Shown here one piece after another: positions 13,905 through 63,934 of a DNA stretch of 64,000 nt. Within the stretch, counting starts at the first letter, position 1. Each line of letters starts with the position of its first letter. The stretch comes from an uncultured beta proteobacterium. GTDB taxonomy: Bacteria; Pseudomonadota; Gammaproteobacteria; Burkholderiales; Burkholderiaceae_C. A program made the translations under genes and the position numbers. A model generated the notes under the pieces. That model worked only from the letters and a program-made list of their open reading frames with translations. It made no database searches and was not told where the DNA came from. Where the stretch lies: the NCBI GenBank assembly GCA_903822435.1, contig CAIJPE010000074.1, forward strand, positions 2,510 to 66,509, in the 5' to 3' direction.

Positions 13905-13937
13905 GCGCAGGCCGGGCCCCTGCGGCCCGGCCTGCGC
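13905..13937 (+). terminator. Strong GC stem-loop, probably an intrinsic terminator
   Basis: GCGCAGGCCGGGCC-cctgc-GGCCCGGCCTGCGC: a perfect 14-bp stem with a 5-nt loop, starting 5 nt after the stop codon and followed by TCTGT. Confidence 0.55.
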
Positions 13938-14017
13938 TCTGTGCGCAAGCCCACCGAACGCAGGCGGCCCAGGGCCCACACTGGCGGGATCCCCTGAATC
14001 CTGAAAGTGCCACTGCC

Positions 14018-14767
14018 ATGACCTACCAAGGCGCACGCGCAGCCTCCCCCGGATCCGAAGACGGGCGTGTCTTCGTGATTTCCAGGCTGCGCCTGGACGA
14101 GTCCGGCCACGTCACCGATGTGCTCTGGACCTCCGTCAATCCGAAATCCAATCTGGATGAAGGCCCGGCCGTGGCGGCCCGGGTGGGCGAGGTCGTGGAC
14201 GCCATCCACGACGGCGCCCGGGTCGAGGCCCTGTTCGCCACCCAGGCGCAGCCCTCGCCCGACCGCTGCTTCGAGGTGCTGGAACACGACGACGGGCTGG
14301 AAACCGTGACGCTGCCCGACCCCGCAGCCCTGCGCCTGGTCGCCACGCTGGACATGCCCTCGCGGCCGGTGCGTGTGGCGCCGCCCACGCCCACCCACTG
14401 GCCCGACAACGGCGCGTCCCGGCTGGCCCGCGCAGCCGGCCCGTCGTCGCGTCGCCCGGTGCAGACCTATGCCGTGTCTCGCGTGGCCCTGGACAACGCC
14501 GGCCGCGTGACCGCCGCCCAGTGGAGCCACGTCGACCTCAAGGCGAATGCGCGCGACAGCATCGAGCGGGTGGTGCCCGTGGCCGACGTGGTGGCAGCCC
14601 TGGAGCGCGGAGACATCGTCCACGCGCTGTTCCCCGAGGTGCATGGGCACCTGCCCGACCGCCTCTTCGTGGTGGTGAACTATGAAGACGGCCGCCAGAC
14701 CATCGCGCTGGAAGGCCCCACCGCCTACGAACGGGACATCCACGACATGGACCGTATCGTGGCCTGA
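14018..14767 (+). CDS. Hypothetical protein made of two tandem DUF3892-like modules
   Basis: The two halves align with each other: VFVISRLRLDESGHVTDVLWTSV...VGEVVDAIHDGARVEALF...EVLEHDDGLETVTL versus TYAVSRVALDNAGRVTAAQWSHV...VADVVAALERGDIVHALF...VVVNYEDGRQTIAL. Confidence 0.65.
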   Translation: MTYQGARAASPGSEDGRVFVISRLRLDESGHVTDVLWTSVNPKSNLDEGPAVAARVGEVVDAIHDGARVEALFATQAQPSPDRCFEVLEHDDGLETVTLPDPAALRLVATLDMPSRPVRVAPPTPTHWPDNGASRLARAAGPSSRRPVQTYAVSRVALDNAGRVTAAQWSHVDLKANARDSIERVVPVADVVAALERGDIVHALFPEVHGHLPDRLFVVVNYEDGRQTIALEGPTAYERDIHDMDRIVA

Positions 14768-14842
14768 TCCGACGGCGCACCGGGGGCCCGGCCGGGGCCC
14801 TGCCTACACTTCAGCCTGTACCGAATAACGACGGAGACAGAC

Positions 14843-48436: not shown

Positions 48437-50242
48437 ATGACCTCCGGCCCGCGCCGCGTGCGCATCGGCGGAGCCAGCGGCTTCTGGGGCGACAGCAGGG
48501 TCGGCGCGCCACAGCTGGTGCGTTCGGGCCTGATCGACTACCTGGTGTTCGACTACCTGGCCGAGACGACCATGGCCATCCTGGCCGCGGCCAGGGCGCG
48601 CAAGCCGGAGCTCGGCTATGCCACCGACTTCGTCGACACGGCGATGCAGCAGGTGCTGCCCGAGGCCCTGGTGCGCGGCATCAGGATCATCGCCAACGCC
48701 GGCGGCATCAACCCCCAAGGCTGTGCCGACGCCCTGCGGCGCCTGGCCGAATCCCAAGGTCTGGCGCCCCGCATCGCCGTGGTGGAAGGCGATGACGTGT
48801 CGGCGCTCATGCCCCGGCTGCGCGAAGCCGGCCTGCGCGACACGCACACCGGCCAGCCGCTGCCCGAGGCGGTACTCAGCGCCAACGCGTACCTGGGCGC
48901 CCTGCCCGTGGCCCGCGCGCTGCAGGCCGGTGCCGACATCGTCATCACCGGCCGGGGGGTGGACAGCGCCGTGACGCTGGGCCCGCTGATCCACGCCTTC
49001 GGCTGGGCGATGAGCGACCACGACCGGCTGGCCGGCGGCAGCCTGGCCGGGCACATCATCGAATGCGGCTGCCAGGCCACGGGCGGCCTGCACACCGACT
49101 GGCAGTCCGTGCCCGACTGGGCGCACATCGGCTACCCCATCGTCGAGTGCGCGGAAGACGGCAGCTTCGAGCTGTTCAAGCCGCCCGGCACCGGCGGCCT
49201 CGTCAGCCGGGCCTGCGTGGCCGAACAGCTGCTCTACGAGATCGGCGACCCGGGCGCCTACCTGCTGGCCGACGTGAGCTGCGACTTCCGCAGCGTCGTC
49301 ATCGAGCAGGCCGGGCCCGATCGCGTCCGGGTGCACGGCGCCCGCGGGCGGGCACCGACACCCACCTACAAGGTCTCGGCCACGCAGCTCGACGGCCACC
49401 GCTGCGCCGGCTCGCTGGTGATCGTCGGCATCGACGCCGCGGCCAAGGCCCGGCGCACGGCACAGGCCATCCTGGAGCGCACGCGGGGGATCCTTGGGCA
49501 GTTGGGGCTGCCCGACTACACGGCCACCCACGTCGAGCTGCTGGGCTGCGAATCGCTCTACGGCGCCCAGGCCCGCACCGCCCAGAGCCGCGAGGTGATG
49601 CTGCGCCTGGTGGTCGATCACCCGAGCAAGGCGGCCCTGGAGATCTTTGCGCGCGAAGTGGCGCCATCGGGCACCTCGTGGTCGCCAGGCACCACCATGC
49701 CGGCCGGCGGGCGGCCTTCGCCTTCACCCTTGGTCAAGCCCTTCTCCTTCCTGCTGGACAAGGCCTTGGTGGACATGCGGGTGCGCATCGACGGCCAGAC
49801 GATCGAGGTGCGGGCCCCGGCCGGGCAGCCCGAAGTGCCGCCTCCGGCCCTGCCCGACCCGCCCGCCTGGCAGGACGCGCCGGGCGCCCCGCAGATCGAC
49901 GTGCCGCTGATCCGCCTGGCCTGGGCACGCAGCGGCGACAAGGGCGACATGTCCAACATCGGCCTGGTGGCGCGACGGCCCGAGTGGCTGCCGCTGCTGT
50001 GGAGCCGCGTCACCGCCGAGGCGGTGCGCCACCACTTCGTGCACCTGCTGCAGGCCGGTGATGCGGCGCGGGTGGAGCGCTTCCACCTGCCCGGCATCGC
50101 AGGCATGAACCTGCTGCTGCACGGCGCCCTGGCGGGCGGCGGGCCGGCATCGCCGCGCTTCGACCCACTGGGCAAGGGCTTCGGCCAGATCCTGCTGGAC
50201 ATGCCGGTCCGGGTGCCCGTGAGCCTGGGCCTGCAGCCTTGA
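48437..50242 (+). CDS. Acyclic terpene utilisation AtuA-family protein (DUF1446)
   Basis: 601 aa: VRIGGASGFWGDS...YLVFDYLAETTMAIL...ANAGGINP...IIECGCQATGG...LLYEIGDP. Confidence 0.85.
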   Translation: MTSGPRRVRIGGASGFWGDSRVGAPQLVRSGLIDYLVFDYLAETTMAILAAARARKPELGYATDFVDTAMQQVLPEALVRGIRIIANAGGINPQGCADALRRLAESQGLAPRIAVVEGDDVSALMPRLREAGLRDTHTGQPLPEAVLSANAYLGALPVARALQAGADIVITGRGVDSAVTLGPLIHAFGWAMSDHDRLAGGSLAGHIIECGCQATGGLHTDWQSVPDWAHIGYPIVECAEDGSFELFKPPGTGGLVSRACVAEQLLYEIGDPGAYLLADVSCDFRSVVIEQAGPDRVRVHGARGRAPTPTYKVSATQLDGHRCAGSLVIVGIDAAAKARRTAQAILERTRGILGQLGLPDYTATHVELLGCESLYGAQARTAQSREVMLRLVVDHPSKAALEIFAREVAPSGTSWSPGTTMPAGGRPSPSPLVKPFSFLLDKALVDMRVRIDGQTIEVRAPAGQPEVPPPALPDPPAWQDAPGAPQIDVPLIRLAWARSGDKGDMSNIGLVARRPEWLPLLWSRVTAEAVRHHFVHLLQAGDAARVERFHLPGIAGMNLLLHGALAGGGPASPRFDPLGKGFGQILLDMPVRVPVSLGLQP

Positions 50243-50280
50243 TCGGAATCCGGCCACAACCGGCACACTCCAGGCCCACC

Positions 50281-51363
50281 ATGACGCCCAGACCCACCCT
50301 GCAAGCCGCCACCGAATTCGCCCAGTCGTGCGAAGTGCCCTGGCCGCGCGATCCCGCCGCAGAGCCCGCGCCGGGCCAGTCGGCCTGGGGTATCCACCAG
50401 GCCGACCCACCGCCCTTCAACCGGCTGCGCGGCCCGGTCCATGCCCGAGGGCCGCAATCGGGCGTGGTCTGGCAGCACGGCCGGGAAGTCGCGGCCTGGG
50501 GCGAGCCGGACCGGCCGGACCTGACCTTCAGCGTGGCCAAGACCTACCTGGCCTTGCTGGCCGGTGTCGCCGTCGACCAGGGTCTGCTGCCCGACGTGCA
50601 CGCGCCCGTGCACCGGCAACTGCCCGGCATCGGATTCGACACCCCGCACAACAGGGCCATCACCTGGGACCACCTGCTGACGCAGACCAGCGAGTGGGAG
50701 GGCACCTGCCTGGGCCTGCCCGATACCGTGGACCGCTGGCGCAAGGTGGCGCAGGACCCGCGGCCGGCCGGAGGCCCGAAGGGCGGCGCCCGACCGCTGC
50801 AGCCGCCCGGGACGTACTGGGAATACAACGACGTGCGGATCAATCAGCTCGCGCTGGCGCTGCTGCACCTGTTCCGCCGGCCGCTGCCGCAGGTCTTCGA
50901 AGAGCACCTCCTGCGGCCGGTGGGTGGCGGCGCGGGCTTCCACTGGGCAGCCTATGACGACGCGTGGGTGGACCTGCCCGGCGTGGGCCGCGTGGCCTCG
51001 GTGCCCGGCGGCACGCACTGGGGCGCGGGGGTGTCGATCTCGGCGCGCGACCAGGCCCGGCTCGCGCAGCTGTTCCTGGACGGCGGCCGTGCCCAGGGCC
51101 GCCCGGTCATCTCGGCGGCCTGGCTGGCCGAGATGGCCGCGCCCTGCCCGATCGCCCCCTTCTACGGCCGGCTGGTGTGGTTGAACGGTGCTGGCGAGTT
51201 CCTGCAGGACGCATCATGCCGGTCGCTCTTCATGCTGGGCGCGGGGGGGCACTGGGTGTGGATCGACCCCGAGCGGGACAGCGTGGCGGTGCTGCGCTGG
51301 CTGGACCCGGCACAGGGAGTGGCGACATTGGGTGTCTTTGCGCAGGCGTTGTGCGGTACGTGA
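50281..51363 (+). CDS. Beta-lactamase-family serine hydrolase
   Basis: The S-x-x-K motif is SVAKTY. There is a WEYNDVRINQL segment and C-terminal GAGGHWVWIDPERD. An alternative TTG start at 50239 overlaps the AtuA stop. Confidence 0.75.
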   Translation: MTPRPTLQAATEFAQSCEVPWPRDPAAEPAPGQSAWGIHQADPPPFNRLRGPVHARGPQSGVVWQHGREVAAWGEPDRPDLTFSVAKTYLALLAGVAVDQGLLPDVHAPVHRQLPGIGFDTPHNRAITWDHLLTQTSEWEGTCLGLPDTVDRWRKVAQDPRPAGGPKGGARPLQPPGTYWEYNDVRINQLALALLHLFRRPLPQVFEEHLLRPVGGGAGFHWAAYDDAWVDLPGVGRVASVPGGTHWGAGVSISARDQARLAQLFLDGGRAQGRPVISAAWLAEMAAPCPIAPFYGRLVWLNGAGEFLQDASCRSLFMLGAGGHWVWIDPERDSVAVLRWLDPAQGVATLGVFAQALCGT

Positions 51364-51395: not shown

Positions 51396-51542
51396 GAGGC
51401 CATTTGGTTGAAGACCGCGACATCATTTCTGCCCTAGGCTTTCCCCATCGACAGTGAGTCCCCTCGACGGAACAATGCATCTGCGGTTGCGCGGGTGCGC
51501 CAGGGGGGCGCCACCTCGGTGATGGCCGTCAGGAGCCTTGCG

Positions 51543-52322
51543 ATGATCGATCTGAGTCTCACCGCGCCATGGCGCGCCACCGCGCTGACGCTGGCCATCA
51601 CGGCGGCTTCGGTGGCCCACGCCGCTGAAGCCGCCCCGCTCACCGTGCAATTCGGCCAGTGCACCGAATTCGTCGGCCTGGCACCGGTAGATGCCGTGGG
51701 TGCGACGGCCCTGTTGCCGGCGCAATATCAACTGGTGATCAGCGGCGGTGCCGCGACCCTGGTGGTCCGCGTCACCGATTGCCAGGCGATCCGCGTGGCC
51801 GACGCAGCGCCCAAGCCCGGTCGGCTGGCGCAGGTCGGGCTGCTCATCGTCTCGCCCGACGGCACCGCCACCGATCCCAACACCTCGATCAACAACTACA
51901 CGCTCAGCTACACCAGCAACCTGCCGCTGCTGGTTCAGCGCGTGAAGTCCAGTGGCGTGCCGGCAAGCCTGGATGAAGGTCTGGCTTACGAGTTCGCGCC
52001 GGCCACCGGCCGCAGCGAGCTCTACGCGGCGGTGGCTCCCGACGAAGGCGGCCAGCCACGCTTCACGCTGCACGGCAGCGTCAGCACGCCCACGATCCCC
52101 ATTCCCTTCCTGGCCAACTGGTGGCGCGGCAGCGGTGCCAAGGCCGTGAAGATGTCGTCCACGTTCCCGGACATCCTCTTCGACTTCACCTCGGAGATGT
52201 CGTTCACCACCTCGCACCTCAACGTGGTGGGCAGGCTGCTGCCGGGCAACCAGGTGGCGTCGTTTCCGGTGAGCTTCCGTGGGGCCTATCACGTCGCCAC
52301 GATGGTTGTGACCACGCCCTGA
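51543..52322 (+). CDS. Secreted hypothetical protein
   Basis: AGGAG lies 7 nt upstream of the ATG at 51543. Signal peptide is MIDLSLTAPWRATALTLAITAASVAHA. I recognise no family. The longest ORF starts at 51495. Confidence 0.6.
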   Translation: MIDLSLTAPWRATALTLAITAASVAHAAEAAPLTVQFGQCTEFVGLAPVDAVGATALLPAQYQLVISGGAATLVVRVTDCQAIRVADAAPKPGRLAQVGLLIVSPDGTATDPNTSINNYTLSYTSNLPLLVQRVKSSGVPASLDEGLAYEFAPATGRSELYAAVAPDEGGQPRFTLHGSVSTPTIPIPFLANWWRGSGAKAVKMSSTFPDILFDFTSEMSFTTSHLNVVGRLLPGNQVASFPVSFRGAYHVATMVVTTP

Positions 52323-52379
52323 GGCCGTGTCCATGGGGTGGGTTTCGATCTGTCAGGACCGAAACGCCGCTTGCGCCAT

Positions 52380-52411
52380 TAACGCATCGATAACGCACCA
52401 CTGCCTATAAA
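52380..52411 (+). promoter_or_regulatory. Two perfect heptad direct repeats on an 11-bp period plus a -10 hexamer: a candidate SARP-dependent promoter
   Basis: TAACGCA (52380-52386), spacer tcga, TAACGCA (52391-52397), 8 nt (ccactgcc), then TATAAA (52406-52411). The ATG lies 35 nt further on and is preceded by GGGAG. Confidence 0.45.
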
Positions 52412-52446
52412 CCGCCTCAGCCCGATGTTGGGCCTGGGAGCGGAAG

Positions 52447-55400
52447 ATGTTCAAGGTGGTCCAAGGCGCGTGGCGCCGGTGGTTGGGTCGGCAGGAGCGA
52501 CGGCGGACTGTTTGGGCGCTGGCCCTGTGCGCCGCGGTCTTGGGCGGCTGCGGCGGCAGTGGAGGCGGGGGTTCGGCGGCGGACAGCGCCGTGACCCAAC
52601 CGCCGTCGAGTGCGTCAGCCACGCTGACAGCCGCGGGGGGCAGCGTCGTGGCTGCAGACGGAGCCAGCGTCACGATACCGGCTGACGCGTTGGACACGAC
52701 AGCGACCATCCGCATCGCCAAGGACTCCACCGGCGCACCGGCCATCCCGTCCGGACTCATGCCGGCAGGGGACATCTACGCCATCACGCCGCACGGCAGC
52801 ACCTTTGCCAAGGCGGTGGAGGTCAAGATCCCGGTGCCCGCGGTGACGCTCCAGCCGGGTGAGCAGATCAAGCTGGCGCAGGCGGAGTTGGGCGGGACGT
52901 GGTTTGTTCACGACCAGAGCAGCGTCAGCGATGGGATGTTGACAGCCAATGTCTATGGATTCTCGGTCTTCATGGCGGTGATCGTTCAGCCGCCCCCGAC
53001 GAATGTTCAATTGCAGCCATTGAATCTTTCGTTTGCGTTTGATTGCCTCAATGGGTTCTATGGCACTGATTCATGCCCACCCATCGGACCCATCAACTGG
53101 CGGATTGCGGTGACCAGCAACGGCGGTCAGCTTGCACCGGGATGTACTGCAAATTCATACTCGGTCAACAATTACTTGACGTTAGCCACCATTGCCACCC
53201 TGCCGATAGGCGGAGGGATCGTCACAGGAACGCTCCCGCAAACTGCAGGTGTGTACGGGGACGTCCTTGTGGTGATAAGGAGATGTGCGACCGATCGCTT
53301 GCCGGTCGCTCTTGGATCCTTTCCAGTGTATTGGAGCGTGCCTCCAAATTATCCGTATTTGAGCGTAGTCTCAACCCCTCCCACGATGGATGTAGTGAGT
53401 GGCCAGACGGCGGCATTGCAGGTCATTCTGGGGGGAGGCCCGTATGCCCGAACTCCATTATCCTTTGCGAGCAGCGCTGATCGCGTGATCGTGGATTGGG
53501 AACGCAGCGATGATCAAGGAAAATCCTGGGTTGGCATTGCGCGTTCTTACCAGAGCGAGGCTGTACTCAATCCAGTACCCGGGGGGCTCCCCCGCATGTA
53601 TTGGGCTGTTTCTCACGGATGGACCGCAAGCACGACCGATCAAGGCGCATTGATCCGCATCCGTGCCTGCTACACGCCGCCGGAGCCGAACGTGGCACCG
53701 CCTCCTTGCGTTCAGAGCGGCCCAACGGCTGTCAACGTCCTGCAGCAGTCGGCGCTGCCCACCTTCACCGCAATTCCCCGCCCGGTCCTGATCCAGACCA
53801 GCCAGACCGCCAGCCTCACCGCCGCCGCCGCCGGCGCGCCGGCCCCCGCGCTGCAATGGCAGACCCGCGATGCCAACAGCAACGGCGCCTGGACGGACGT
53901 GAGCACCGGAACCGGTGCGACCACCGGCAACTTCACCACGCCATCGCTGACCCTGGCCGACAACGGCCGGCAGTACCGCGTGGTGGCCACCAACGCGGTC
54001 GGCACCGCCGAAAGCCAACCCGTCACCGTCTCGGTGAGCGACCAGGCCGTGGCGCCCCGCATCACCACGCAGCCGGCCAGCCTCAGCGTGACGACCGGCA
54101 ACGATGCCGCGTTCGCCATCAGCGCCACCGGCACCGAGCCGCTCAGCTACCATTGGCGCTTCAACGGCACGCCGATCAGCGGCACCAACAGCCCCGTGCT
54201 GCGGCTTGCTCGCGTGGACGCCAGCAAGGCCGGCGCCTACAGCGTGGTGGTCAGCAATGGCGTGGGCTCGCAGGCCAGCCAGATGCCCGACGCCACCCTC
54301 ACCGTCAGCGCCGCGGCACCGGCAGCCACAGCCCCCACCATCGTGTCGCCACCGGCGAGCGTGACGGTCAACACCGGCAGCACGGCCAACTTTGCGGTGG
54401 GCGTCAGCGGCACCGGGCCCTTCAGCTACCAGTGGCTGAAGAACGGGCAGCCCGTCAGCGGCGCGACGGGAGCGGCCTACAGCGTCGCCGCCGTCACGTC
54501 CACCGACGCGGGCAGCTCCACCGTGCAGGTGAACAACAGCGTGGGTCCGCTGACCGCCAGCGCCGCGGCCACGCTCACCGTCAACCCAAGCCCCGCGCCC
54601 ACCCCCTTGACTTTGACGGCGCAGCCCACACCGCAGGTGCAGGCTCCGGGCGGCAGCGCGACCTTCGCGGTCGCAGCCAGCGGCACCGGCCCCATCACCT
54701 ACCAGTGGTTGAAGGACAACGTGGCCCTGCCGGGTGCCACGCTGCCGGTGCTGACGGTCAGCAGCATCAACAGTGGGGACGCCGGCACGTACAGCGTCAC
54801 GGTCAGCAACGGCGTGGGGGCACCTCAGACCGTGAGCGCCAGCCTGCTGGTGCTGGGCGTGCCGGTCATCGGCACGCAGCCCGCGGCGGCCTCTGCGACC
54901 ACCGGCAGCACCGCCACCTTCAGCGTGACCGCCAGCGGCACGCAGCTGCGGTACCTGTGGCTGCGCAACGGCGTGGTGGTGCCCGGCGCCGCCAGTGCCA
55001 GCTACACAACGCCGGCCCTGGCCTTGACGGATTCGGGCGCGGTCTACAGCGTGGTGGTCTACAACGGGGCGGGCGCCGCCGTGAGCCAGACGGCCGTGTT
55101 GACGGTGACCACGCCCCCGGTCACGGTGACGACCGCCAGTGTGCTGGTCGGTTCCATCGGCAATCCGGGCCGGACCGATGCACCCAGTGGCCCCGGCACG
55201 GCGGCCCGGCTGTCCGGTCCTGCCTTCATGACCAAGGACGCGGCCGGCAACGTCTACGTGACGGAAAACCGCAACGGCGATGTGCGCAAGATCACGCCCG
55301 CCGGTGCGGTCACCACCGTGGCCACCCTGCTGACGGACCCGCAGGGCGTGGCCGTGGACGGCAATGGCAATGTGTACGTGGCCGACGGCCTGGACAACAC

Positions 55401-56112
55401 CATCAAGCGCATCACGCCGGCGGGCGTCGTCACCGTGTTTGCGGGCTCCTCGGGCGTGGCCGGGTACGTCAACGCAGTCAACCCGCTGCAAGCGCGCTTC
55501 GATGACCCCGGGGGCCTGGCCACAGACGGAACCTGGCTCTACGTGGCCGACCTCAACAACCACGCCATCCGGCGGGTGTCCCTGGCCACGGGGGCCGTCG
55601 ACACGCCGGTAGCCAGCGCCACGGTCGCACCCTTGAGCATCGTGGACGGCGCGCTGGGCACGGCCACCCTGGGCCGCCCGCTCGACGTGACCGTGACCCG
55701 CGGTGGCGTGCTGTACTGGACCGAAGAAGCCAACGTCGTGCGCACGCTCAGTGGCGGGCAGGTCGTCACGGTGGCGGGTTCACTCGTGCCCGGCACACTG
55801 CCCGGCTACTCGGATGGCGTGGGCAGCGCGGCCCGCTTCAATTCGCTGCAATGCATCACAGCCGACGACCAGGGCAACCTGTACGTGACCGACTACTACA
55901 ACTTCGTGGTCCAGAAACTCACCTTCCCGGGCGGCGCGGCCGCCGCGGCGACGGTGACGACCGTGTTCGGCGTGGCCCTGGATGGCCGCACCGTGACCGG
56001 AACCAGCGGACGGGTGGCCTATCCGATCGGCATCGTGTGGACGGGCACGGGGCAGCTGGCGGTGGCGTCCAACGACAGTCACGTGGTCCTGAACATCGTG
56101 CTGGGCCAGTAG
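52447..56112 (+). CDS. Giant surface lipoprotein with a ZU5-like domain, five tandem Ig (I-set-like) domains and a C-terminal NHL-repeat beta-propeller
   Basis: Lipobox is AAVLGGC. The ZU5-like segment (about 52618-52971) is GGSVVAADGASVTIPADALDTTATIRIAKD...YAITPHGSTFAKAVEVKIPVP. The Ig units fit the pattern TQPAS..V..G..A.F.V.A.G..P..YQW.KNG..., SD.G.Y.V.V.N. The NHL units include NVYVTENRNGDVRKITPAGAV, NVYVADGLDNTIKRITPAGVV and LYVADLNNHAIRRV. Confidence 0.85.
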   Translation: MFKVVQGAWRRWLGRQERRRTVWALALCAAVLGGCGGSGGGGSAADSAVTQPPSSASATLTAAGGSVVAADGASVTIPADALDTTATIRIAKDSTGAPAIPSGLMPAGDIYAITPHGSTFAKAVEVKIPVPAVTLQPGEQIKLAQAELGGTWFVHDQSSVSDGMLTANVYGFSVFMAVIVQPPPTNVQLQPLNLSFAFDCLNGFYGTDSCPPIGPINWRIAVTSNGGQLAPGCTANSYSVNNYLTLATIATLPIGGGIVTGTLPQTAGVYGDVLVVIRRCATDRLPVALGSFPVYWSVPPNYPYLSVVSTPPTMDVVSGQTAALQVILGGGPYARTPLSFASSADRVIVDWERSDDQGKSWVGIARSYQSEAVLNPVPGGLPRMYWAVSHGWTASTTDQGALIRIRACYTPPEPNVAPPPCVQSGPTAVNVLQQSALPTFTAIPRPVLIQTSQTASLTAAAAGAPAPALQWQTRDANSNGAWTDVSTGTGATTGNFTTPSLTLADNGRQYRVVATNAVGTAESQPVTVSVSDQAVAPRITTQPASLSVTTGNDAAFAISATGTEPLSYHWRFNGTPISGTNSPVLRLARVDASKAGAYSVVVSNGVGSQASQMPDATLTVSAAAPAATAPTIVSPPASVTVNTGSTANFAVGVSGTGPFSYQWLKNGQPVSGATGAAYSVAAVTSTDAGSSTVQVNNSVGPLTASAAATLTVNPSPAPTPLTLTAQPTPQVQAPGGSATFAVAASGTGPITYQWLKDNVALPGATLPVLTVSSINSGDAGTYSVTVSNGVGAPQTVSASLLVLGVPVIGTQPAAASATTGSTATFSVTASGTQLRYLWLRNGVVVPGAASASYTTPALALTDSGAVYSVVVYNGAGAAVSQTAVLTVTTPPVTVTTASVLVGSIGNPGRTDAPSGPGTAARLSGPAFMTKDAAGNVYVTENRNGDVRKITPAGAVTTVATLLTDPQGVAVDGNGNVYVADGLDNTIKRITPAGVVTVFAGSSGVAGYVNAVNPLQARFDDPGGLATDGTWLYVADLNNHAIRRVSLATGAVDTPVASATVAPLSIVDGALGTATLGRPLDVTVTRGGVLYWTEEANVVRTLSGGQVVTVAGSLVPGTLPGYSDGVGSAARFNSLQCITADDQGNLYVTDYYNFVVQKLTFPGGAAAAATVTTVFGVALDGRTVTGTSGRVAYPIGIVWTGTGQLAVASNDSHVVLNIVLGQ
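53755..55110 (+). repeat. Five tandem Ig-like repeat units of about 90 aa each, repeated at protein level and diverged at DNA level
   Basis: The units begin near LPTFTAIPRPV, APRITTQPASLSV, APTIVSPPASVTV, LTLTAQPTPQVQA and VPVIGTQPAAASA. Each ends in a ...L(T/L)V(S/N/L/T) strand. Confidence 0.75.
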
Positions 56113-56157
56113 GAAGCTCACGCAAGCTCTGCCTGACCTCCTGGGATACTGGCGCCC

Positions 56158-59100
56158 ATGCACCTGCGACTGACCCGGTTCCCCGAAATCCGGCGTCCGG
56201 AGGGAGGCCAGGTGGCCCTGGCCTCCCGCGACGCCGCGCTGCTGGCCTGGCTGGCCCTGGAAGGCCCCACGGCGCGCAGCCGTCTGGCCTTGCTGCTGTG
56301 GCCCGACAGCGAGCCCAAGGCGGCGCGCAACAACCTTCGGCAGCGGGTGTTCCAGCTCAAGCGCTGGAGCGGCGCGGACGTGGCTGTGGGCACGGACATC
56401 CTGGCGCTGGGCGCGGGCGTGGTGCACGACCTGGACTCATCACACGCCCTGCTGGGTGACGATGCCCACGACCACAGTCCGGATTTCGCAGCCTGGCTGC
56501 GCGACCAGCGCGAACGCCGCCGCGCGCAGTGGCGCCAGGCGCTCGTGGCCCGCGCCGACAGGGCCGAGCAGGCCCATGCCCACGCAGAGGCCCTGCAGGC
56601 GGCCCTGGACATCCTGGCGCTGGAGCCCCTGTCGGAAGAGGCCCACCGGCGTTTGATCCGCCTGCACTACCTGGCGGGCGACCGCGCGGCCGCACTGCTG
56701 GCCTTCGACCGCTGCGAGCAGGTGCTGAAGAACGAGGTCGGCACGCGGCCTTCGGCGCAGACGATGGCCCTGCTGGCGACGATCGAGGGCTCGGCGCCTC
56801 AACCGGCCGCCCCCCTGCCGGTTGCGCGCGGAGGGGGACCGGTGCCGGCCAGCGTCATGCGCCCGCCCCGCCTGATCGGCCGCGAACGCGAACTCGCCGC
56901 CCTGAACGAGGGCTGGCGTGCCGGGCAGGTGGTGGCGCTCATCGGAGAAGCGGGCATGGGCAAGACCCGCCTGCTGCAGGCACTGGGCGAGAGCCATGCC
57001 GGCGTGGTGCGCGCGGCCGGCCGGCCGGGCGACGCCGGGGTGCCCTTTTCCACCCTGGCCCGCCTGCTCCGCGCGGTGCTGGCGCTGCGCCAGGGCCCGC
57101 CGGGTGCCGAGTTGGCGCCGCCCATGCGCAGCGAGATCGGCCGCGTGCTGCCCGAATTCGGCGGCGGACCGGCCCTGGCCAGCGAAGGGCAGCGCCTGGT
57201 GCTGCAGCGGGCCCTGCGCGCCTTGCTGGCGCAGCATCCGGAACTGACGGGCGTGGCCCTGGACGACCTGCACTTCGCCGACGAGGCGAGCCTGGACATG
57301 CTGGCCTCGCTCCTGGAAGCCGAGCAGGCCGAGAACCCCATGCAGGGTGACGCGGCAGCGCCCGCCTTGCGTTGGGTGCTGGCCTACCGGCCCGCCGAAG
57401 CAGGCTCGGCCGTGCGCAGCTTGCAGGACGCCCTGGTCGAAGCGGCGCGGCTGGCGCCGGTGACCGTGGCCCCGTTGAACGAAGCCGCGCTGGCCGAACT
57501 GGTGGACTCGCTGGGCCTGGCGGGCCTGGAGGGGCGCAAGCTGGCCCCGGGCCTGGCCCGCCGCACCGGCGGCAACCCCCTCTTTGCCCTGGAGACCCTC
57601 AAGCAGGCCTGGGTGGAGCGCAGCTTGCACCAGCTGGCCGATGCGAACTCCTTGCCCAGGCCGGTGTCGGTGGGCCTGCTGATCGAGCGCCGTGTGGCGC
57701 AGTTGTCGCCCGGCGCCCTGGCCCTGGCGCGCGTGGCCAGCGTGGCGGGCGTGGATTTCAGCGTGGCCCTGGCCGAGACGGTGCTGGGTGTGTCGGCCAT
57801 GCAGTTCGCCGACGCCTTGAACGAACTGGAGTCGGCGCAGGTGCTGCGCGGCAATGGCTTCGCGCATGATCTGGTCTTCGATGCGGTCCGTGCCAGCGTG
57901 CCGACGACCATCGCTGCCCACACGCACGCCGCAGTGGCGGCCTGGCTGGAGCTGCGCCAGAGCGAGCCGGCCCGGATTGCCGAGCACTGGGTCCAGGCCG
58001 GTGAGGGCCTGCGGGCCCTGCCTTGGCTCCAGAAGGCTGCCGATGCCGCCCGCCGGGCCCTGCGGTCGAAGGAATTCATAGCCTTCATGGAGCGAAAGAG
58101 CGCCATCGAGGAAGCCGCAGGCCATCGCGCAGAGGCCTTTGACTCCTTGGCCGTGGCCCTGGCAGAGCGCGTGGAGGTGGATTCGGATGCGGCCACGGTC
58201 GGGGCCTACTGCGACAGGCTCGCCGGCTTGGCCAGCACCCCGGCGCAGCAGGTGGAAGCCTTGTTGCAGCGCGCCGGCATGCACAAGCAATTGGCCGACT
58301 TCTCCAACACCCTGCACGACTCCCGACTGGCCCTGCGCGAGAGCATCCGCCTGGCCGACCCCGCGCTCACCGCCCGTTGCCACATGATGCTGGCCAATGC
58401 CCACGGCGCGAATGCGCAGGACGAGCAGGCGCTGTCTCACCTGCAAGCCAGCATGGACTGGGTGAACACCCACGGCACCGAGCGTGAACGCAGCGACCTC
58501 CACGGTTCCATGGGCGTGCTGTACGACAACCTGGCGCGCCTGGACGATGCGCTGCCGCACCACGAGCTGGGCTTTGCGCTGGCCTGCTCCAGTGGCAACA
58601 TGGCCAACGCGGCCATCGCCTGCGGCAATCTGGCCTGCAACCGCATCGATGCGGGCGACCTGCTCGCCGCAGAGCAGAACTTGCAGAAGGGCCTGCAGGT
58701 CGCCGCGCAATACGACACCTTCAGTGCGACGCTGGGGTCGCTGCAACTGCTGCGTGCGCTGAGCCTGTGCCACCTGGGCCATTACGACGTCGCGTTGCAG
58801 CAGGCCGAGCAGGGCTTGGAGTCCATGCGCCGCCACCAGCCCGGCCACGAAAACATCGCCCTCTTGCGCCTGGCCACCTGTTGGTGGCATCTGGGGCAGT
58901 GGTCGCGCATGCCGAAACTGCTGGACGCGGCACAGTTGGACCAAGGGCTGGGCTTGAGCGCGAGGGTCTTGCATGCCTTGCTGCGTTGGCGGTACCTGCG
59001 GGGTACCGGCGCCGGTGCCGCGGCGGTGGCCCTGGCCCGCAAGGCCTTGCAGAGCTTGCTGGGCGACATCGGTCCGGACAAGCGGCCCGACATGCGCTTG

Positions 59101-59532
59101 CCCTTGGTCATCGAGCTGACGGCAGACCTGGACCCGGCGGCGGCGCTGGCACAGCTGGATGCCGTGTGCGCCGAGGCCCGGCGCATCGGCTTCATGGGGG
59201 CCCTGCTGGCCGGTCACATCCGGGCGGCGGCCGCTGCGGCGGTCTGCGACCCTGCACGGGCTGGTCACGAAGCGCGCGAGGCGCTGGCCCTGGCCGAGGG
59301 GCACCAGACCACGGTGCTGCTGCCGGCCGAGCTCTGGCTGCACGCGGGCCAGGCCATCCTGGCTTCGGGCGACCGCGAGGCGGCGCAGGCCGTCATGCAA
59401 CAAGGCCGCGACTGGCTTCAGCGCACCGCCCGGGACCATGTCCCCGGGCCCTTCCGCGACAGCTTCCTGCAACGCAACCCGGTCAACCGGAGCCTGCTGG
59501 CGTCCTCGGCATCCGGCGTGGGGCTGGTTTAG
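56158..59532 (+). CDS. SARP-type (OmpR-like wHTH plus BTAD) regulator fused to an AAA/STAND ATPase and a TPR array (AfsR-like architecture)
   Basis: 1124 aa. The N-terminal region is ALLAWLALEGPTARSRLALLLWPDSEPKAARNNLRQRVFQLKR. The BTAD segment is LSEEAHRRLIRLHYLAGDRAAALLAFDRCEQVLKNEVGTRPSAQT. Walker A is LIGEAGMGKTRLL and Walker B is VALDDLHFADEAS. A long helical-repeat C-terminus follows. Confidence 0.85.
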   Translation: MHLRLTRFPEIRRPEGGQVALASRDAALLAWLALEGPTARSRLALLLWPDSEPKAARNNLRQRVFQLKRWSGADVAVGTDILALGAGVVHDLDSSHALLGDDAHDHSPDFAAWLRDQRERRRAQWRQALVARADRAEQAHAHAEALQAALDILALEPLSEEAHRRLIRLHYLAGDRAAALLAFDRCEQVLKNEVGTRPSAQTMALLATIEGSAPQPAAPLPVARGGGPVPASVMRPPRLIGRERELAALNEGWRAGQVVALIGEAGMGKTRLLQALGESHAGVVRAAGRPGDAGVPFSTLARLLRAVLALRQGPPGAELAPPMRSEIGRVLPEFGGGPALASEGQRLVLQRALRALLAQHPELTGVALDDLHFADEASLDMLASLLEAEQAENPMQGDAAAPALRWVLAYRPAEAGSAVRSLQDALVEAARLAPVTVAPLNEAALAELVDSLGLAGLEGRKLAPGLARRTGGNPLFALETLKQAWVERSLHQLADANSLPRPVSVGLLIERRVAQLSPGALALARVASVAGVDFSVALAETVLGVSAMQFADALNELESAQVLRGNGFAHDLVFDAVRASVPTTIAAHTHAAVAAWLELRQSEPARIAEHWVQAGEGLRALPWLQKAADAARRALRSKEFIAFMERKSAIEEAAGHRAEAFDSLAVALAERVEVDSDAATVGAYCDRLAGLASTPAQQVEALLQRAGMHKQLADFSNTLHDSRLALRESIRLADPALTARCHMMLANAHGANAQDEQALSHLQASMDWVNTHGTERERSDLHGSMGVLYDNLARLDDALPHHELGFALACSSGNMANAAIACGNLACNRIDAGDLLAAEQNLQKGLQVAAQYDTFSATLGSLQLLRALSLCHLGHYDVALQQAEQGLESMRRHQPGHENIALLRLATCWWHLGQWSRMPKLLDAAQLDQGLGLSARVLHALLRWRYLRGTGAGAAAVALARKALQSLLGDIGPDKRPDMRLPLVIELTADLDPAAALAQLDAVCAEARRIGFMGALLAGHIRAAAAAAVCDPARAGHEAREALALAEGHQTTVLLPAELWLHAGQAILASGDREAAQAVMQQGRDWLQRTARDHVPGPFRDSFLQRNPVNRSLLASSASGVGLV

Positions 59533-59541
59533 GGGATCGCC

Positions 59542-60327
59542 TCAACGCCCCGTCCAGCCCGGCTTGCGCTTTTCGTTGAAGGCCGCCATGCCCTCCCGGG
59601 CGTCCTCGGTGAGCGAGAGCAGCGAGATCTGCCCCTCCATGTGGCCGATCGCCTGGTCGAAGGACATGGCCTCGATGGTGCGCAGGGCGACCTTGCCGCG
59701 CCGGATGGCGGTGGGCGACTTGTCGACCAGCCGGCCCAGCAGCCACGCCACCTTGGCGTCCAGTTCGGCGGCCGGCACGACATGGTTCAGCAACCCGGCG
59801 GCCAGCGCCTCGGCCGCGCCGAAGGGCTCGCCGCACAGGGCCCATTCGCGCACCGTGCGGCGCGGCACCGTGCCTTGCAGCAGGCTCATCACCTGCATCG
59901 GGAAGACGCCGACCTTCACCTCGGGCAGGCCGAACAGGGCGTGGTCGGCGGCCACCGCCATGTCGACCATGCACAGCAGGCCCATGCCGCCGGCCATGCA
60001 GGTGCCGTTGACGCGGGCGATGGTGGGCAGCGTGGCCGCGTGGGCGTCGCGCAGCAGGTCGGCGTAGTCGCCGTTGGGCCGCGAGGGGTCGAAGGCGAAG
60101 CCCGTGCCCTTCTGCAGGTCGGCCCCGGCACAGAAAGCCTTGTCGCCCGAGGCGGTGAGCACGATGGCCCGCACCGCCGCGTCGGCATGCGCGGCACGAT
60201 AGCCGGCGCGGATGCCGGCAATGACCTCGGCGTTCAGCGCATTGCGCTTGTCGGGGCGGTCGATCGTGATCCAGTAGGCCGCGCCGCGCCGCTCGTGCAG
60301 CACCAGAGGCTTGGGGTCTTCGCTCAT
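59542..60327 (-). CDS. Enoyl-CoA hydratase/isomerase (crotonase) family protein, AtuE/LiuC-like by context
   Basis: ITIDRPDKRNALN...FCAGADL...ARVNGTCMAGGMGLLCMVDMAVAADHALFGLPEVKVGVFP. Confidence 0.88.
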   Translation of the reverse strand: MSEDPKPLVLHERRGAAYWITIDRPDKRNALNAEVIAGIRAGYRAAHADAAVRAIVLTASGDKAFCAGADLQKGTGFAFDPSRPNGDYADLLRDAHAATLPTIARVNGTCMAGGMGLLCMVDMAVAADHALFGLPEVKVGVFPMQVMSLLQGTVPRRTVREWALCGEPFGAAEALAAGLLNHVVPAAELDAKVAWLLGRLVDKSPTAIRRGKVALRTIEAMSFDQAIGHMEGQISLLSLTEDAREGMAAFNEKRKPGWTGR

Positions 60328-62321
60328 GCGGTCGCTCCGGGTGTGATCTCAGCCAGCAGGCGGCCGGCGGCCACCTGCTCGCCGGCCGCGGCATGCAGGG
60401 CCTGAACGGTGCCCGCGCACGGTGCCGTGTGGCTGTGCTCCATCTTCATCGCCTCCAGGGTCAGGATGGGCTGGCCGGCCTGCACCACGTCGCCGGGCTG
60501 CACCAGCACGGCCACGACCCGGCCGTTCATGGAAGCCCGCACGCGACCGTCCGCCGTACCGGCTGCGGCGGCCGGCGCAGTGGCGGCGCGGGTGGTGTCT
60601 CGCACCTCGAAGGGGGTACCGTCCGCCTGCAGCCAAAGCAAGGCGCCCTGGCGGAAGAAGGGCACCGTTCGCATCACGCCATCGCAGCTCATCCGGGCGC
60701 GGTCGGGCTGGAGGTGGGTGATCTCGACCTCGTGGCTGTGCCCGGACACCTCCACCCGGTAGCAGGCGGCGCCGAGATGGGTGGCCTGGGCGACTCGCGG
60801 CAGCCCCGCCAGCTCGAAGCGCAGCATGAGAGGCAGGCGCATCGTCAGCGGGCGGCCCGGCCTCTGGGGCGGCGGACCGACGTGCTCGCCGGTGCGAAGC
60901 AGCAGCACGGCGGCCAGCGCCGCGGCGCGGCCGATGCCGTCTTCATCGGGTTGCAGCAACGCATTGCCCTGCGTGACGATGAAGCCGGTGGTCGCCAGGC
61001 CCTGCACGAAGGCCGGAGCCGCCAGGCAGCGCTGCAGGAAGGCCTGGTTGGTGCGCAGGCCCAGGGCCACCAGGTCCTGAAGGCCGGCGCGCAGCTTGCG
61101 CAGGGCGGCTTCACGGGTGTCGCCGTGGGCCACCAGCTTGGCGATCATGGAGTCGTATTCGGCCGGGATGGCCGCCCCGCTGAGCAAGGCATGCTCCACG
61201 CGCAGGGTCTCGGGGGCCTGCCACAGGCCGACCACGCCGCTTTGCGGCATGAAGCCCTGCGCAGGGTCCTCGGCGCACAGGCGGAGCTCGATGGCGTGGC
61301 CTTGCAGGCGCACGTCGGCCTGCGCCAGCGGCAGGGCATCGCCGGCGGCCACGGCCAGTTGCAGGGCCACCAGGTCCAGCCCGGTCAGGGCCTCGGTCAC
61401 GGGGTGCTCGACCTGCAGGCGGGTGTTCATCTCCATGAAGTAGTAGCGGCCCTCGCGGTCGAGCAGGAACTCCAGCGTGCCCGCTCCCTCGTAGCCGATC
61501 GCCTGCACCGCGGCCACGGACGTGGCCCCCATGCGTTCGCGCAGCCCGGCGTCGACCGCTGGCGAAGGCGACTCCTCGATCAGCTTCTGGTGCCGGCGCT
61601 GCACCGAGCAGTCGCGCTCACCCAGGTGGATGGCGTTGCCGTGGCGATCGGCCAGGATCTGGATCTCGACGTGACGCGGCTCGATGAGCGCACGCTCCAG
61701 GATGACCGTGCCATCGCCAAAACCATGCCGGGCCTCGCTCTGCGCGCTGCGCAGGGCATCCGGGAAGTCGGCGGCCGCGTCGACCCGCCGCATGCCGCGC
61801 CCGCCGCCGCCGGCCACGGCCTTGATCATCACCGGGTAGCCGATGCGCGCGGCCTCCTCGGCCAGGCGGCCGGGCGCCTGGTCTTCGCCGTCGTAGCCCG
61901 GCACGCAAGGCACGCCGGCGGCCTGCATCCGGCGCTTGGCGCCGGCCTTGTGGCCCATCGCGGCGATGGCCTCGGCCGAAGGGCCGACAAACACCAGCCC
62001 GGCCTCGCGGCAGGCCCGCGCAAAGGCCGCGTTTTCGGCCAGGAATCCGTAGCCAGGGTGCACGGCGTCGGCACCGGCCTGGCGGGCGGCGGCGATCAGT
62101 GCCGGGATGTTCAGGTACGACTCCGCCGGCGGGGCGCCGCCGATGTAGACGGCTTCATCCGCTTCCAGCGCGTGGCGGGCTCGGGCGTCGGCGGCGGAGT
62201 AGACCGCTACCGTGCGGTAGCCCAGGCTGCGTGCGCTGCGCAGGATGCGCAGGGCGATCTCGCCGCGGTTGGCGATCAGCAGCTTGCTGAACGGCGTGCG
62301 CGCGGGTGTGGAGGTGCTCAT
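60324..62321 (-). CDS. Biotin-dependent acyl-CoA carboxylase alpha subunit (biotin carboxylase plus BCCP), AtuF/MccA-like
   Basis: From the internal Met, MSTSTPARTPFSKLLIANRGEIALRILRSAR...GYPVMIKAVAGGGGRGMR...EMNTRLQVEHPVTE, with the C-terminal biotinyl motif LEAMKMEH. It overlaps both neighbours by 4 nt. Confidence 0.92.
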   Translation of the reverse strand: MSTSTPARTPFSKLLIANRGEIALRILRSARSLGYRTVAVYSAADARARHALEADEAVYIGGAPPAESYLNIPALIAAARQAGADAVHPGYGFLAENAAFARACREAGLVFVGPSAEAIAAMGHKAGAKRRMQAAGVPCVPGYDGEDQAPGRLAEEAARIGYPVMIKAVAGGGGRGMRRVDAAADFPDALRSAQSEARHGFGDGTVILERALIEPRHVEIQILADRHGNAIHLGERDCSVQRRHQKLIEESPSPAVDAGLRERMGATSVAAVQAIGYEGAGTLEFLLDREGRYYFMEMNTRLQVEHPVTEALTGLDLVALQLAVAAGDALPLAQADVRLQGHAIELRLCAEDPAQGFMPQSGVVGLWQAPETLRVEHALLSGAAIPAEYDSMIAKLVAHGDTREAALRKLRAGLQDLVALGLRTNQAFLQRCLAAPAFVQGLATTGFIVTQGNALLQPDEDGIGRAAALAAVLLLRTGEHVGPPPQRPGRPLTMRLPLMLRFELAGLPRVAQATHLGAACYRVEVSGHSHEVEITHLQPDRARMSCDGVMRTVPFFRQGALLWLQADGTPFEVRDTTRAATAPAAAAGTADGRVRASMNGRVVAVLVQPGDVVQAGQPILTLEAMKMEHSHTAPCAGTVQALHAAAGEQVAAGRLLAEITPGATA

Positions 62322-63934
62322 GGCCGGGCCACCGAGAACTGCATGCGCTGGGGCTGACGGGCATCGCCTTCGCGGCAGACCGCCAGCACCAGGGCCAGGA
62401 CGCTGCGCGTGTCGCGCGGATCGATCACGCCGTCGTCCAGCACCAGGGCGCTGGTGGTGAAGACGCTCATCTGGCGCTCGAAGCGCTGCACGATCTTCGC
62501 CTGCATGTCGGCCATCTGGGCCGGGTCGACGGCCACGCCGCGGCGCTGCGCGGCGGCCTCGCTGACGATGGCCATGGTGCGCGCTGCCTGCTCGCCGCCC
62601 ATCACGGCGGTGCGGGCGTTGGGCCAGCTGAACGAGAAGCGCGGCGCGAAGCCGCGGCCGCACATGCCGTAGTTGCCGGCCCCGAACGAGGCCCCGCAAT
62701 ACAGCGTGACCTGCGGCACCGTGGCGTTGGTCACGGCCTGGATCATCTTCGAGCCGTGCTTGATCATGCCGGCTTCCTCGTGCGCCTTGCCCACCATGTA
62801 GCCGGTGGTGTTCTGCAGGTAGACGATGGGCGTGCGCGACTGACAGCAGGCCTGGATGAAGTGCGTGGCCTTGGTGGCGCCGGCGTTGTCGATGGGGCCG
62901 TTGTTGGTGACGATGCCCACGGCATGTCCCTCCAGCCGCATGTGCCCGCAGAGCGTGGCCGCGCCGTAGTCCGCACCGAACTCGAGGAACTCGGAATCGT
63001 CGTCAATGCGCGCGATGACCTCGCGCATGTCCACGGGCCGCTTCAGGTCCATCGGCATCAGGCCGAGCAGTTCCTCGGCATCGTGGCGCGGTGGCCTGGC
63101 CGCGCGCGGCGCCGCGGGCCCATGCGGCCAGTCGATCTGCGCCACGATCGCGCGGGCGATGCGGATGGCGTCACGGTCGTCTTCGGCCAGATAGTCGCCC
63201 AGGCCGGAGATGCGGCTGTGCATCTCGGCGCCGCCCAATTCTTCTTCGGTGGCGATCTCGCCGGTGGCCGCCTGCAGCAGGGGCGGGCCGGCCAGGAAGG
63301 CCCGCGAACGCCCGCGCACCATCACGATGTAGTCGGACAGGCCCGTCTGGTAGGCCCCGCCGGCCGTGGACGAGCCATGCGTGACCGTGACCACCGGCAG
63401 CCCGGCCGCCGACAGGCGCGCCAGGTTGCGGAACAGCGCGCCGCCGCGCACGAATTCTTCCACCCGGTAGGCCATGAGGTTGGCGCCCGCGCTTTCCACC
63501 AGCTGCACGTAGGGCAGCTTGTTTTCCAGCGCCAGCTCCTGCACGCGCAGTTGCTTGTCCAGGCCCATGGGCTGCAAGGCCCCGGCGTCGATGCCCGCAT
63601 CGGACGCGCTGACCATGCAGCGCGTGCCGCTCACGGTGCCGATGCCTGCGATGACGCCGCCGCCGGGCACGCTCTTGTCCAGGTCGGGCGTGTCCAGGCC
63701 CAGTCCGGCCAGGGTGGACAGCTCGAGAAAGGGGGAGCCAGGATCCAGCAGCAGCGCCACGCGGTCGCGCGGCAGCATCTGCCCGCGTTTGTCGAAGCGC
63801 TCGCGCGAGGCAGCCGACTTCTGCACGGCACGCTGTTCGCACTGGCGCACGCGCTCGAGCAGGGCCAGCATGCCCGTGCGGTTGGCCTGGAAGACCTCGC
63901 TGGCGGCGGTGAGTCGGGGTTCGATGACGGCCAT
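62318..63934 (-). CDS. Acyl-CoA carboxylase carboxyltransferase (beta) subunit, AtuC/MccB-like
   Basis: 538 aa: RGQMLPRDRVALLLDPGSPFLELS...GGVIAGIGTVSG...SAGANL...THGSSTAGGAYQ...GYMVGKAHEEAGMIKHGSKM...GAGNYGMCGR. Confidence 0.92.
   Translation of the reverse strand: MAVIEPRLTAASEVFQANRTGMLALLERVRQCEQRAVQKSAASRERFDKRGQMLPRDRVALLLDPGSPFLELSTLAGLGLDTPDLDKSVPGGGVIAGIGTVSGTRCMVSASDAGIDAGALQPMGLDKQLRVQELALENKLPYVQLVESAGANLMAYRVEEFVRGGALFRNLARLSAAGLPVVTVTHGSSTAGGAYQTGLSDYIVMVRGRSRAFLAGPPLLQAATGEIATEEELGGAEMHSRISGLGDYLAEDDRDAIRIARAIVAQIDWPHGPAAPRAARPPRHDAEELLGLMPMDLKRPVDMREVIARIDDDSEFLEFGADYGAATLCGHMRLEGHAVGIVTNNGPIDNAGATKATHFIQACCQSRTPIVYLQNTTGYMVGKAHEEAGMIKHGSKMIQAVTNATVPQVTLYCGASFGAGNYGMCGRGFAPRFSFSWPNARTAVMGGEQAARTMAIVSEAAAQRRGVAVDPAQMADMQAKIVQRFERQMSVFTTSALVLDDGVIDPRDTRSVLALVLAVCREGDARQPQRMQFSVARP

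Follow-up and report, generated by a model that had tools for sequence, protein, structure and literature searches.

SARPs are textbook activators of antibiotic biosynthesis. They have been described as exclusively or mainly actinomycete proteins, with proteobacterial matches that are perhaps not typical SARPs (PMC7040171, PMC10936776), and their promoters follow a rule in which the direct repeats lie 11 or 22 bp apart and the 3' repeat lies 8 bp from the -10 element (PMC10936776). In Streptomyces coelicolor the afs box of the afsS promoter consists of two 11-bp units, has its centre at -29.5 and overlaps a poor -35 element, and the isolated SARP domain of AfsR, a "large" SARP, binds the box and activates transcription in vitro (PMC10936776). 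ActII-ORF4, DnrI and RedD, which are encoded beside their targets, likewise use heptameric repeats with an 11-bp period, the last repeat being 8 bp from the -10 (PMC10936776; PMC7040171). The SARP-LAL regulators PimR, SanG and PolR join a SARP domain to a LAL/AAA_16 P-loop ATPase, are devoid of the LuxR helix-turn-helix, and employ two or three heptamers with 4-bp spacers; the operators of SanG and PolR overlap the -35 (PMC5930380).

Here we describe a 64,000-nucleotide stretch of DNA (positions 2,510 to 66,509 of contig CAIJPE010000074.1, referred to below as the window) from an uncultured beta proteobacterium of the Burkholderiales. It carries two copies of the heptamer TAACGCA in front of a gene for a large lipoprotein, which is followed after 45 nt by a gene for a SARP-like regulator. 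We consider it likely that the repeats are the operator of an activator-dependent promoter of the lipoprotein gene, and that the SARP-like regulator encoded 45 nt beyond that gene is the activator. A sequence-only reading of this DNA had remarked that SARP regulation is poorly explored outside the actinomycetes, which agrees with the literature searched (PMC7040171); full-text searches returned no study on SARP-type regulators or operators in the Burkholderiales or Proteobacteria.

The repeat box and the promoter of the lipoprotein gene

The elements of the promoter and the transcription unit that it is predicted to serve are as follows.

52380–52386, + strand: upstream direct repeat (DR-up), TAACGCA, with the family core T[AG]ACG[CG]
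52391–52397, + strand: downstream direct repeat (DR-down), again TAACGCA, at 11 bp from DR-up and with 8 bp between it and the -10-like hexamer
52406–52411, + strand: -10-like hexamer TATAAA, with the family consensus TAnAAn at a fixed offset
52418–52419, + strand: predicted transcription start, placed from the position of the -10
52436–52440, + strand: Shine-Dalgarno-like GGGAG, 6 nt before the ATG, read from the sequence
52447–56112, + strand: target gene for the 1221-aa lipoprotein, signal peptide with lipobox LGGC
56113–56157, + strand: 45-nt intergenic gap between the lipoprotein and regulator genes

The box region in full reads gcgccatTAACGCAtcgaTAACGCAccactgccTATAAAccgcc. Its two copies of TAACGCA are perfect, are separated by the spacer TCGA and have a start-to-start distance of 11, and an independent repeat finder returned exactly the 52380/52391 pair. 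No in-phase third repeat was seen 5' of 52380 on reading the sequence. The gap between the second copy and TATAAA is exactly 8 nt (CCACTGCC). The sequence-only reading had described the repeats, the spacer and this distance in the same way, and had likened their geometry to that of SARP promoters; the geometry equals the published rule (PMC10936776), and both the period of 11 and the offset of the TA are fixed across the related loci described below. Its further remark that no -35 element is obvious also held, since the hexamers found 16–18 bp 5' of TATAAA (GCATCG, CGCATC and ACGCAT) agree with TTGACA at one position of six at most, and a scan of 51800–52900 for the sigma-70 consensus gave no match and no -35 element at the box. 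If transcription were to start at 52418, 7 nt after TATAAA, DR-up would occupy the usual place of the -35, at approximately -38 to -32, and the centre of the 22-bp box (52378–52399) would fall at -29.5, as in the afs box.

RNA polymerase has to sit on DNA that the box overlaps, and a SARP-like protein bound to the box might act as a repressor or roadblock, occluding the -35 region of a promoter that fires by itself. We regard this as improbable. Neither the window nor the family consensus has a recognisable -35, which is a hallmark of activator-dependent promoters, and the characterised SARPs with operators of such geometry are all activators (PMC10936776, PMC5930380). A repressor encoded in its own operon would produce negative feedback, which is possible but leaves the missing -35 unexplained.

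On both strands of the window the heptamer TAACGCA occurs twice, in each case within the box, against an expectation of 1.4. The 18-nt pattern with up to 2 mismatches has an expectation of 0.05 in the window and was matched at least once in 5 of 100 shuffles. These window-only statistics are suggestive, not decisive. They are also what speaks for a chance juxtaposition of the repeats and TATAAA, devoid of function, in an AT-richer intergenic stretch, and it is the comparison with related loci that bears on this explanation.

Conservation of the box at related loci

The loci compared (given below by L numbers where they need to be told apart) were obtained via an alignment of 31 regulators, 79 from species-representative genomes and 80 from metagenomes; approximately 70 Burkholderiales loci with a clear regulator homologue (0.96 Mb) constitute the family loci, and the remainder (1.14 Mb) the controls. 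In the first Burkholderiales loci, the window pattern with up to 3 mismatches identified many sites of the form TAACG(C/G)-N5-TAACGC-N9-TAcAAc adjoining the regulator gene. A relaxed pattern had 79 matches in the family loci versus 9 in the controls. Pairs of T[AG]ACG[CG] occur 55 times at period 11 in the family loci and 0–4 times at each of the other periods within 7–13, and in 35 of the 55 a TA begins exactly 9 nt after the second hexamer (8 after the heptamer), with no other offset found more than 3 times. Dinucleotide-preserving shuffles of the same loci gave 2.0 pairs at period 11 and, when the TA was required, 0.05; these controls for period, offset and shuffling are independent of the -10. 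The strict pattern TRACGS-N5-TRACGS-N9-TA is present in 31 of 163 loci, all but one of which are family loci (30/31). A weight matrix built from 38 sites returned, at a threshold of 20, 57 matches in the family loci, one in the controls and one in the window. This last match, at 52380 (score 27.8), is the only one in the 64 kb, where nothing else scores above 8. A pair TGACGGGCCAGTGACGC at 27072 of the window was rejected as a second box, as it is without a -10.

What the family conserves is a hexameric core, T-R-A-C-G-S, with C-R in front of it. Base seven of the repeat, A in the window, is not conserved (it is C in 19/38 and 22/38 sites at the two repeats), and therefore the "8 bp" spacing hinges on counting the heptamer as TAACGCN. 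The consensus of the -10 across the 38 sites is T (35/38), A (37/38), any base, A (27), A (23), any base. 

The clearest single comparison is provided by L080, where an orthologue of the lipoprotein (6242–9904; 1221 aa, 51% identity) is immediately followed by a tandem of two regulator genes. The promoter of this orthologue is TAACGCTGTCATAACGCC-cgccccga-TAGAAC, with flanks unrelated to those of the window, and on this alignment it is a clean phylogenetic footprint in which the box and the -10 are kept and the flanks differ. Dozens of related loci repeat the same box, period and TA distance, which controls and shuffles hardly ever show, and the loci are not near-identical copies, as the regulators share 33–65% identity and the flanks differ. 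A chance origin is effectively refuted by the period, shuffle and locus comparisons. Judged from sequence comparison, the repeats are a real, evolutionarily conserved promoter signal, and the comparison makes the box far more than a coincidence.

The sites are also placed as promoters of genes near the regulator. The matrix sites number 60; 54 share the strand of the regulator, and none is inside regulator coding DNA. Within 250 nt of the regulator gene there are 8.0 sites per 10 kb, a density that declines steadily to 0.18 at 8–12 kb. A downstream open reading frame (ORF) could be called at 53 sites; in most cases it starts 1–84 nt after the -10, and in eight it was assigned at 165–352 nt. 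Eleven sites are directly 5' of the regulator gene itself, and because of these autoregulation is, as far as sequence can tell, a trait of the family. Most other downstream ORFs encode exported proteins, many with a LAAC/LVAC lipobox, and the target families include lipoproteins, PEP-CTERM proteins and RTX proteins. An N-terminal motif, ATxGAAGGTVxGPDG...VPAGAL, is common to many target proteins and the lipoprotein of the window. At loci built like the window, the site is 5' of a lipoprotein gene abutting the regulator gene, the gap between these genes being just as short and free of a box; at other loci the box is directly before the regulator gene. In either arrangement the regulator is, by the location of the predicted sites, kept under its own motif across the family. 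Two further loci, L160 and L163, were fetched by protein identity and not by the pattern, and have the site where it would be expected: in L160 a site is found in front of a 1421-aa Ig/lactonase protein, which is followed by the regulator, and in L163 a site is found in a divergent gap, in front of an RCC1 protein.

Conservation of a promoter-proximal motif in the absence of a sigma-70 -35 might in principle also point to an alternative sigma factor, for example one of the ECF type, with the hexamers as the -35 and -10 of its promoter; the weak last base of the -10, atypical for sigma-70, is in keeping with this. We find it very unlikely, given that the hexamers form an identical direct repeat with an 11-bp period, that they lie 9 and 20 nt from the TA-initiated hexamer, as against 16–17 nt for pairs of -35 and -10, and that no sigma-factor gene is conserved at the loci, whereas the SARP-like gene is.

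Several observations on the target proteins and loci can be added. The target proteins form a modular family with a lipobox, a ZU5-like N-terminal domain, several consecutive Ig I-set domains and, at the C-terminus, a beta-propeller whose type is exchanged between orthologues (window, L080, L015, L098, L013, L006, L030 and L160). ZU5 is above the cut-off in several homologues of the window lipoprotein. In the window lipoprotein itself the N-terminal ZU5-like domain is sub-threshold (E value 0.029) and is followed by four to five domains of the Ig I-set type, with an NHL propeller at the C-terminus. The propeller is of the RCC1 type in L080, L015 and L098, of the BNR/sortilin type in L013 and of the lactonase type in L160; typing was by Pfam scans, which also detected a PD40 propeller among the target proteins, and for the lactonase of L160 by precomputed Pfam matches. 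A PEP-CTERM protein in L026 (8975–9886) has a perfect box with CAGAAT as its -10, and L001 has an RTX/PD40 protein (12649–15825) neighbouring the regulator. Tandem paralogous SARP-like regulators are located behind the lipoprotein gene in L080 (9914–16689), L083 (7995–13388), L085 (7422–12688) and L013 (6496–13276). L161 holds a CsgG-containing six-gene operon (205–5017), with no box on the contig.

The SARP-like regulator and its relation to the repeat

The regulator gene and its domains have the following positions.

56158–59532, + strand: regulator gene for a 1124-aa SARP-like protein, with OmpR-type winged helix and BTAD, AAA_16 P-loop NTPase and TPR-like C-terminus
56158–56802, + strand: SARP domain, aa 1–215, from the AF2 model, Foldseek and the BTAD score
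56869–57330, + strand: AAA_16 P-loop NTPase domain, aa 238–391, with Walker A GEAGMGKT

The sequence-only reading had described a SARP(BTAD)-STAND-TPR regulator gene beyond a gap of 45 nt. Its SARP character is borne out by a BTAD score above the cut-off and by fold matches to AfsR and EmbR, and the protein further has an AAA_16 domain and a TPR-like C-terminus. BTAD (PF03704) was detected at aa 108–209 with 41.3 bits against a Pfam cut-off of 22.1, and with 45.9 bits in the isolated N-terminus. An AF2 model of residues 1–250, computed from an alignment of 35 homologues, has a pLDDT of 91.4 and consists of an N-terminal three-stranded sheet, helices 23–35, 40–47 and 53–71, a wing strand at 81–84, and five BTAD helices at 108–211. 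Helix 53–71 (AARNNLRQRVFQLKRW) is the putative recognition helix. Foldseek searches of the PDB with this model gave six matches with E values below 1e-3, to AfsR (8k60, 8hvr) and EmbR (2fez, 2ff4) only, with E values of 7e-6 to 9e-5 over approximately 252 columns, that is the whole domain, at a TM of approximately 0.56. The OmpR-type winged helix is thus evident by structure (AF2 and Foldseek) and unseen by sequence. No match to Response_reg, the receiver domain, was found in the regulator, the winged helix being at the extreme N-terminus. The C-terminal 895 aa matched only a TPR protein, RapH (3q15; E value 1e-4), and homologues of the regulator have TPR_12 and TPR_1 matches. The protein has the "large" SARP architecture and is nearest to the SARP-LAL type, because its NTPase is AAA_16.

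Relatives of the regulator are numerous: among 8,000 candidates scored, at least 2,422 had E values of 1e-20 or lower, and the best 120 are full-length with 49–65% identity. Those named among the best relatives belong to Rhizobacter, Rubrivivax, Rhodoferax, Piscinibacter and Burkholderiaceae, and the homologues and loci used here are from the Burkholderiales, including Rubrivivax, Rhizobacter, Ideonella, Methylibium and Rhodoferax. Automated annotation (JGI) already names many homologues "SARP family transcriptional activator", and therefore the family assignment of the protein is not new. The historical circumscription of SARPs by an actinomycete host and secondary-metabolite clusters does not cover this protein, although that circumscription is taxonomic and functional, not structural.

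A comparison with the described systems brings out the differences. AfsR shares with the window regulator the winged helix and BTAD (best folds 8k60 and 8hvr) followed by a nucleotide-binding domain and TPR-like repeats, and the afs box shares with the window box the two 11-bp units, the poor or absent -35 and the 8 bp to the -10. However, AfsR has only about 20% identity to the window regulator, its NTPase is NB-ARC instead of AAA_16, and its target is a small pleiotropic regulator of antibiotic synthesis in an actinomycete, whereas here the host belongs to the Burkholderiales, the repeat is T[AG]ACG[CG], no phosphorylation partner is evident and the targets are neighbouring genes for surface or secreted proteins. 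ActII-ORF4, DnrI and RedD have approximately 250–400 aa, consist of a SARP domain only and act in actinomycete antibiotic clusters, in contrast to the 1124 aa with sensor domains found here, where no biosynthetic cluster is present. The SARP-LAL proteins differ in their heptamer (CGGCAAG), in the operator of PimR, which is upstream of the -35 (class I-like), and in belonging to actinomycete antifungal clusters in which the single target is another regulator gene (PMC5930380). EmbR of Mycobacterium tuberculosis, which provided fold matches 4–6 (2fez, 2ff4), has the winged helix and BTAD in common with the window protein, but carries a C-terminal FHA domain under Ser/Thr kinase control and has no comparable heptad-repeat promoter architecture.

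The relation between regulator and repeat was approached by grouping the regulators according to the sequence of the putative recognition helix; L002, L009 and L160 were assigned to clade A by overall similarity and not by the N-terminal helix. The 32 sites of clade A (ARNxLRQRLF), to which the regulator of the window belongs, are all TAACG/TAACG. Clade B (PRRNLRQQLLRF) has 10 sites, all with (C)GTGACG in both repeats, and clade C (ARGNLRQRLL) has a mixed motif. This co-variation represents a few clade-level events and not 42 independent ones. It is the pattern that would be expected if the regulator reads the repeat.

The winged helix of the PhoB/OmpR class binds tandem direct repeats one helical turn apart, as in the pho box, where it replaces the -35. 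An 11-bp tandem geometry is common to this whole class, and some other winged-helix protein, for example an OmpR/PhoB-type response regulator, might bind the repeats in place of the neighbouring SARP-like protein, in whose sequence Pfam finds no DNA-binding domain and whose own binding we infer. We judge such a binder unlikely, because the SARP-like regulator is the only gene common to all the site-bearing loci, at which the target genes vary, and because the motif variant changes together with the recognition helix of the regulator. In addition, the site density is maximal within 250 nt of the regulator gene, and the N-terminus of the regulator has the fold of the AfsR/EmbR DNA-binding module in the AF2 and Foldseek analyses. 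The window regulator also differs from PhoB and OmpR in having no receiver domain, and these in having no BTAD.

Proposed mechanism, genomic setting and significance

In the mechanism that we propose for the activator-dependent promoter, two protomers of the regulator would bind the box head-to-tail on one face of the DNA via their OmpR-type winged-helix domains. The bound protomers would stand in for the -35 contact of sigma region 4, the "sigma adaptation" modelled on AfsR, and would bring the housekeeping RNA polymerase to TATAAA, the -10. Transcription would then run from about 52418 through the lipoprotein gene and the 45-nt gap into the regulator gene, creating a positive feedback. The P-loop NTPase and the TPR-like C-terminus would presumably gate the activity in response to a signal, by analogy with AfsR. 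In all of this we infer not only binding by the regulator but also activation, the start site, co-transcription and the roles of the C-terminal domains.

The feedback idea, already put forward in the sequence-only reading, fits the 11 sites in front of regulator genes, the arrangement of lipoprotein and regulator genes, and the terminator-free gap. No full box, consensus promoter or terminator-like hairpin was found in 56113–56157, and scans for consensus sigma-70 promoters and intrinsic terminators around the promoter and the operon gave no match. A lone half-site-like heptamer, TCACGCA, is present in the gap at 56118–56124; it was rejected as a second box for the regulator gene, having neither a repeat at +11 nor a -10 at the family distance.

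Some points weigh against an activator-dependent promoter under the control of this regulator. A box that overlaps the -35 position could fit repression as well. Both the seed pattern and the matrix stem from the motif of the window itself, and the related loci share ancestry, so that the sites counted are not independent of one another. The -10 ends in T in only 15/38 sites, which is unusual for a strong sigma-70 -10 and may reflect dependence on an activator. At the protein level, Trans_reg_C, the Pfam OmpR-type DNA-binding domain, went undetected in the regulator N-terminus even at E values up to 10, and the sequence matches to AfsR and EmbR are weak (E values 0.012 and 0.02) and cover the BTAD part only. 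No site was found in L161 and L162, the contigs of which start inside the upstream operon, and among the sequencing runs with DNA near-identical to the window none was an RNA run with the window sequence. The runs with such DNA are all lake-water metagenomes.

For the family as a whole, we lean towards a more general proposal. The Burkholderiales SARP-like P-loop/TPR regulators may use AfsR-type "sigma adaptation" on sigma-70 promoters without a -35, with two T[AG]ACG[CG] repeats at 11 bp and TAnAAn 8 bp further on. They would activate themselves and adjacent genes for modular surface proteins, and the A/G position of the repeat would be read by clade-specific helices.

The surroundings of the promoter include other structures. 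An inverted repeat at 52342–52365 (GTTTCGATC / GACCGAAAC, 9-nt arms 6 nt apart) lies between an upstream 275-aa ORF, whose stop is 20 nt away, and the first heptamer, which follows after 15 nt; it lacks a T-run, its folding energy is ordinary, and it could be a weak terminator or another operator. A hairpin at 52412–52443 (CCGCCUCAGCCC...GGGCCUGGGAGCGG; -20 kcal/mol, z -3.3) would pair with the Shine-Dalgarno sequence, and was dropped as a regulatory element since it starts 5' of the predicted transcription start. A structured 5' untranslated region was likewise rejected as a family element, as the leaders of 22 homologous promoters, folded from their predicted starts, had no consistent structure. 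No known RNA family was found in the intergenic region. The upstream ORF (51495–52322) has a coding-like G+C content at third codon positions (0.87); neither Pfam nor NCBIfam matched it, none of the related loci has a homologue, and it is therefore outside the conserved unit.

Further 5' on the + strand are genes for AtuA (48437–50242) and a protein of the beta-lactamase family (50239–51363), and 3' on the - strand are genes for an enoyl-CoA hydratase (59542–60327), a biotin carboxylase with a biotinyl domain (60327–62699) and a carboxyltransferase (62318–63934). The lipoprotein-regulator pair sits inside this acyclic-terpene/leucine-type acyl-CoA catabolic cluster (48437–51363, 59542–63934), and looks like an insertion into it. 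The window, which makes up nearly all of its 67-kb contig, has a G+C content of approximately 70%. Within the lipoprotein gene a 600-nt patch (53047–53646) has a third-position G+C of 0.56–0.59 versus 0.79–0.95 in the rest, the total G+C dropping to 0.61 at 53001–54000; the patch may be a recombined or recently acquired segment.

What appears to be new is a conserved operator with the exact SARP geometry in a proteobacterium, together with a clade-specific A/G switch and a surface-protein regulon. The proteobacterial family retains the SARP fold, the exact promoter geometry and autoregulation, and differs in the repeat sequence and in its regulon of large surface lipoproteins and other exported proteins. 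The promoter pattern is simple and highly specific, and offers annotators a way to predict the regulon of abundant, unstudied regulators, and the natural TAACG and GTGACG clades offer a way to study how a recognition helix reads its repeat. The finding also opens the questions of whether the "sigma adaptation" of AfsR works with a Gram-negative housekeeping holoenzyme, of what signal the P-loop and TPR domains perceive, and of the role of ZU5-Ig-propeller lipoproteins in freshwater Burkholderiales. If the proposal is true, SARP-type control, described almost only in antibiotic-producing actinomycetes, would also operate in freshwater Betaproteobacteria, and SARP-type activation would be an ancient cross-phylum mechanism, not an actinomycete speciality, and one that offers a natural swap of specificity.

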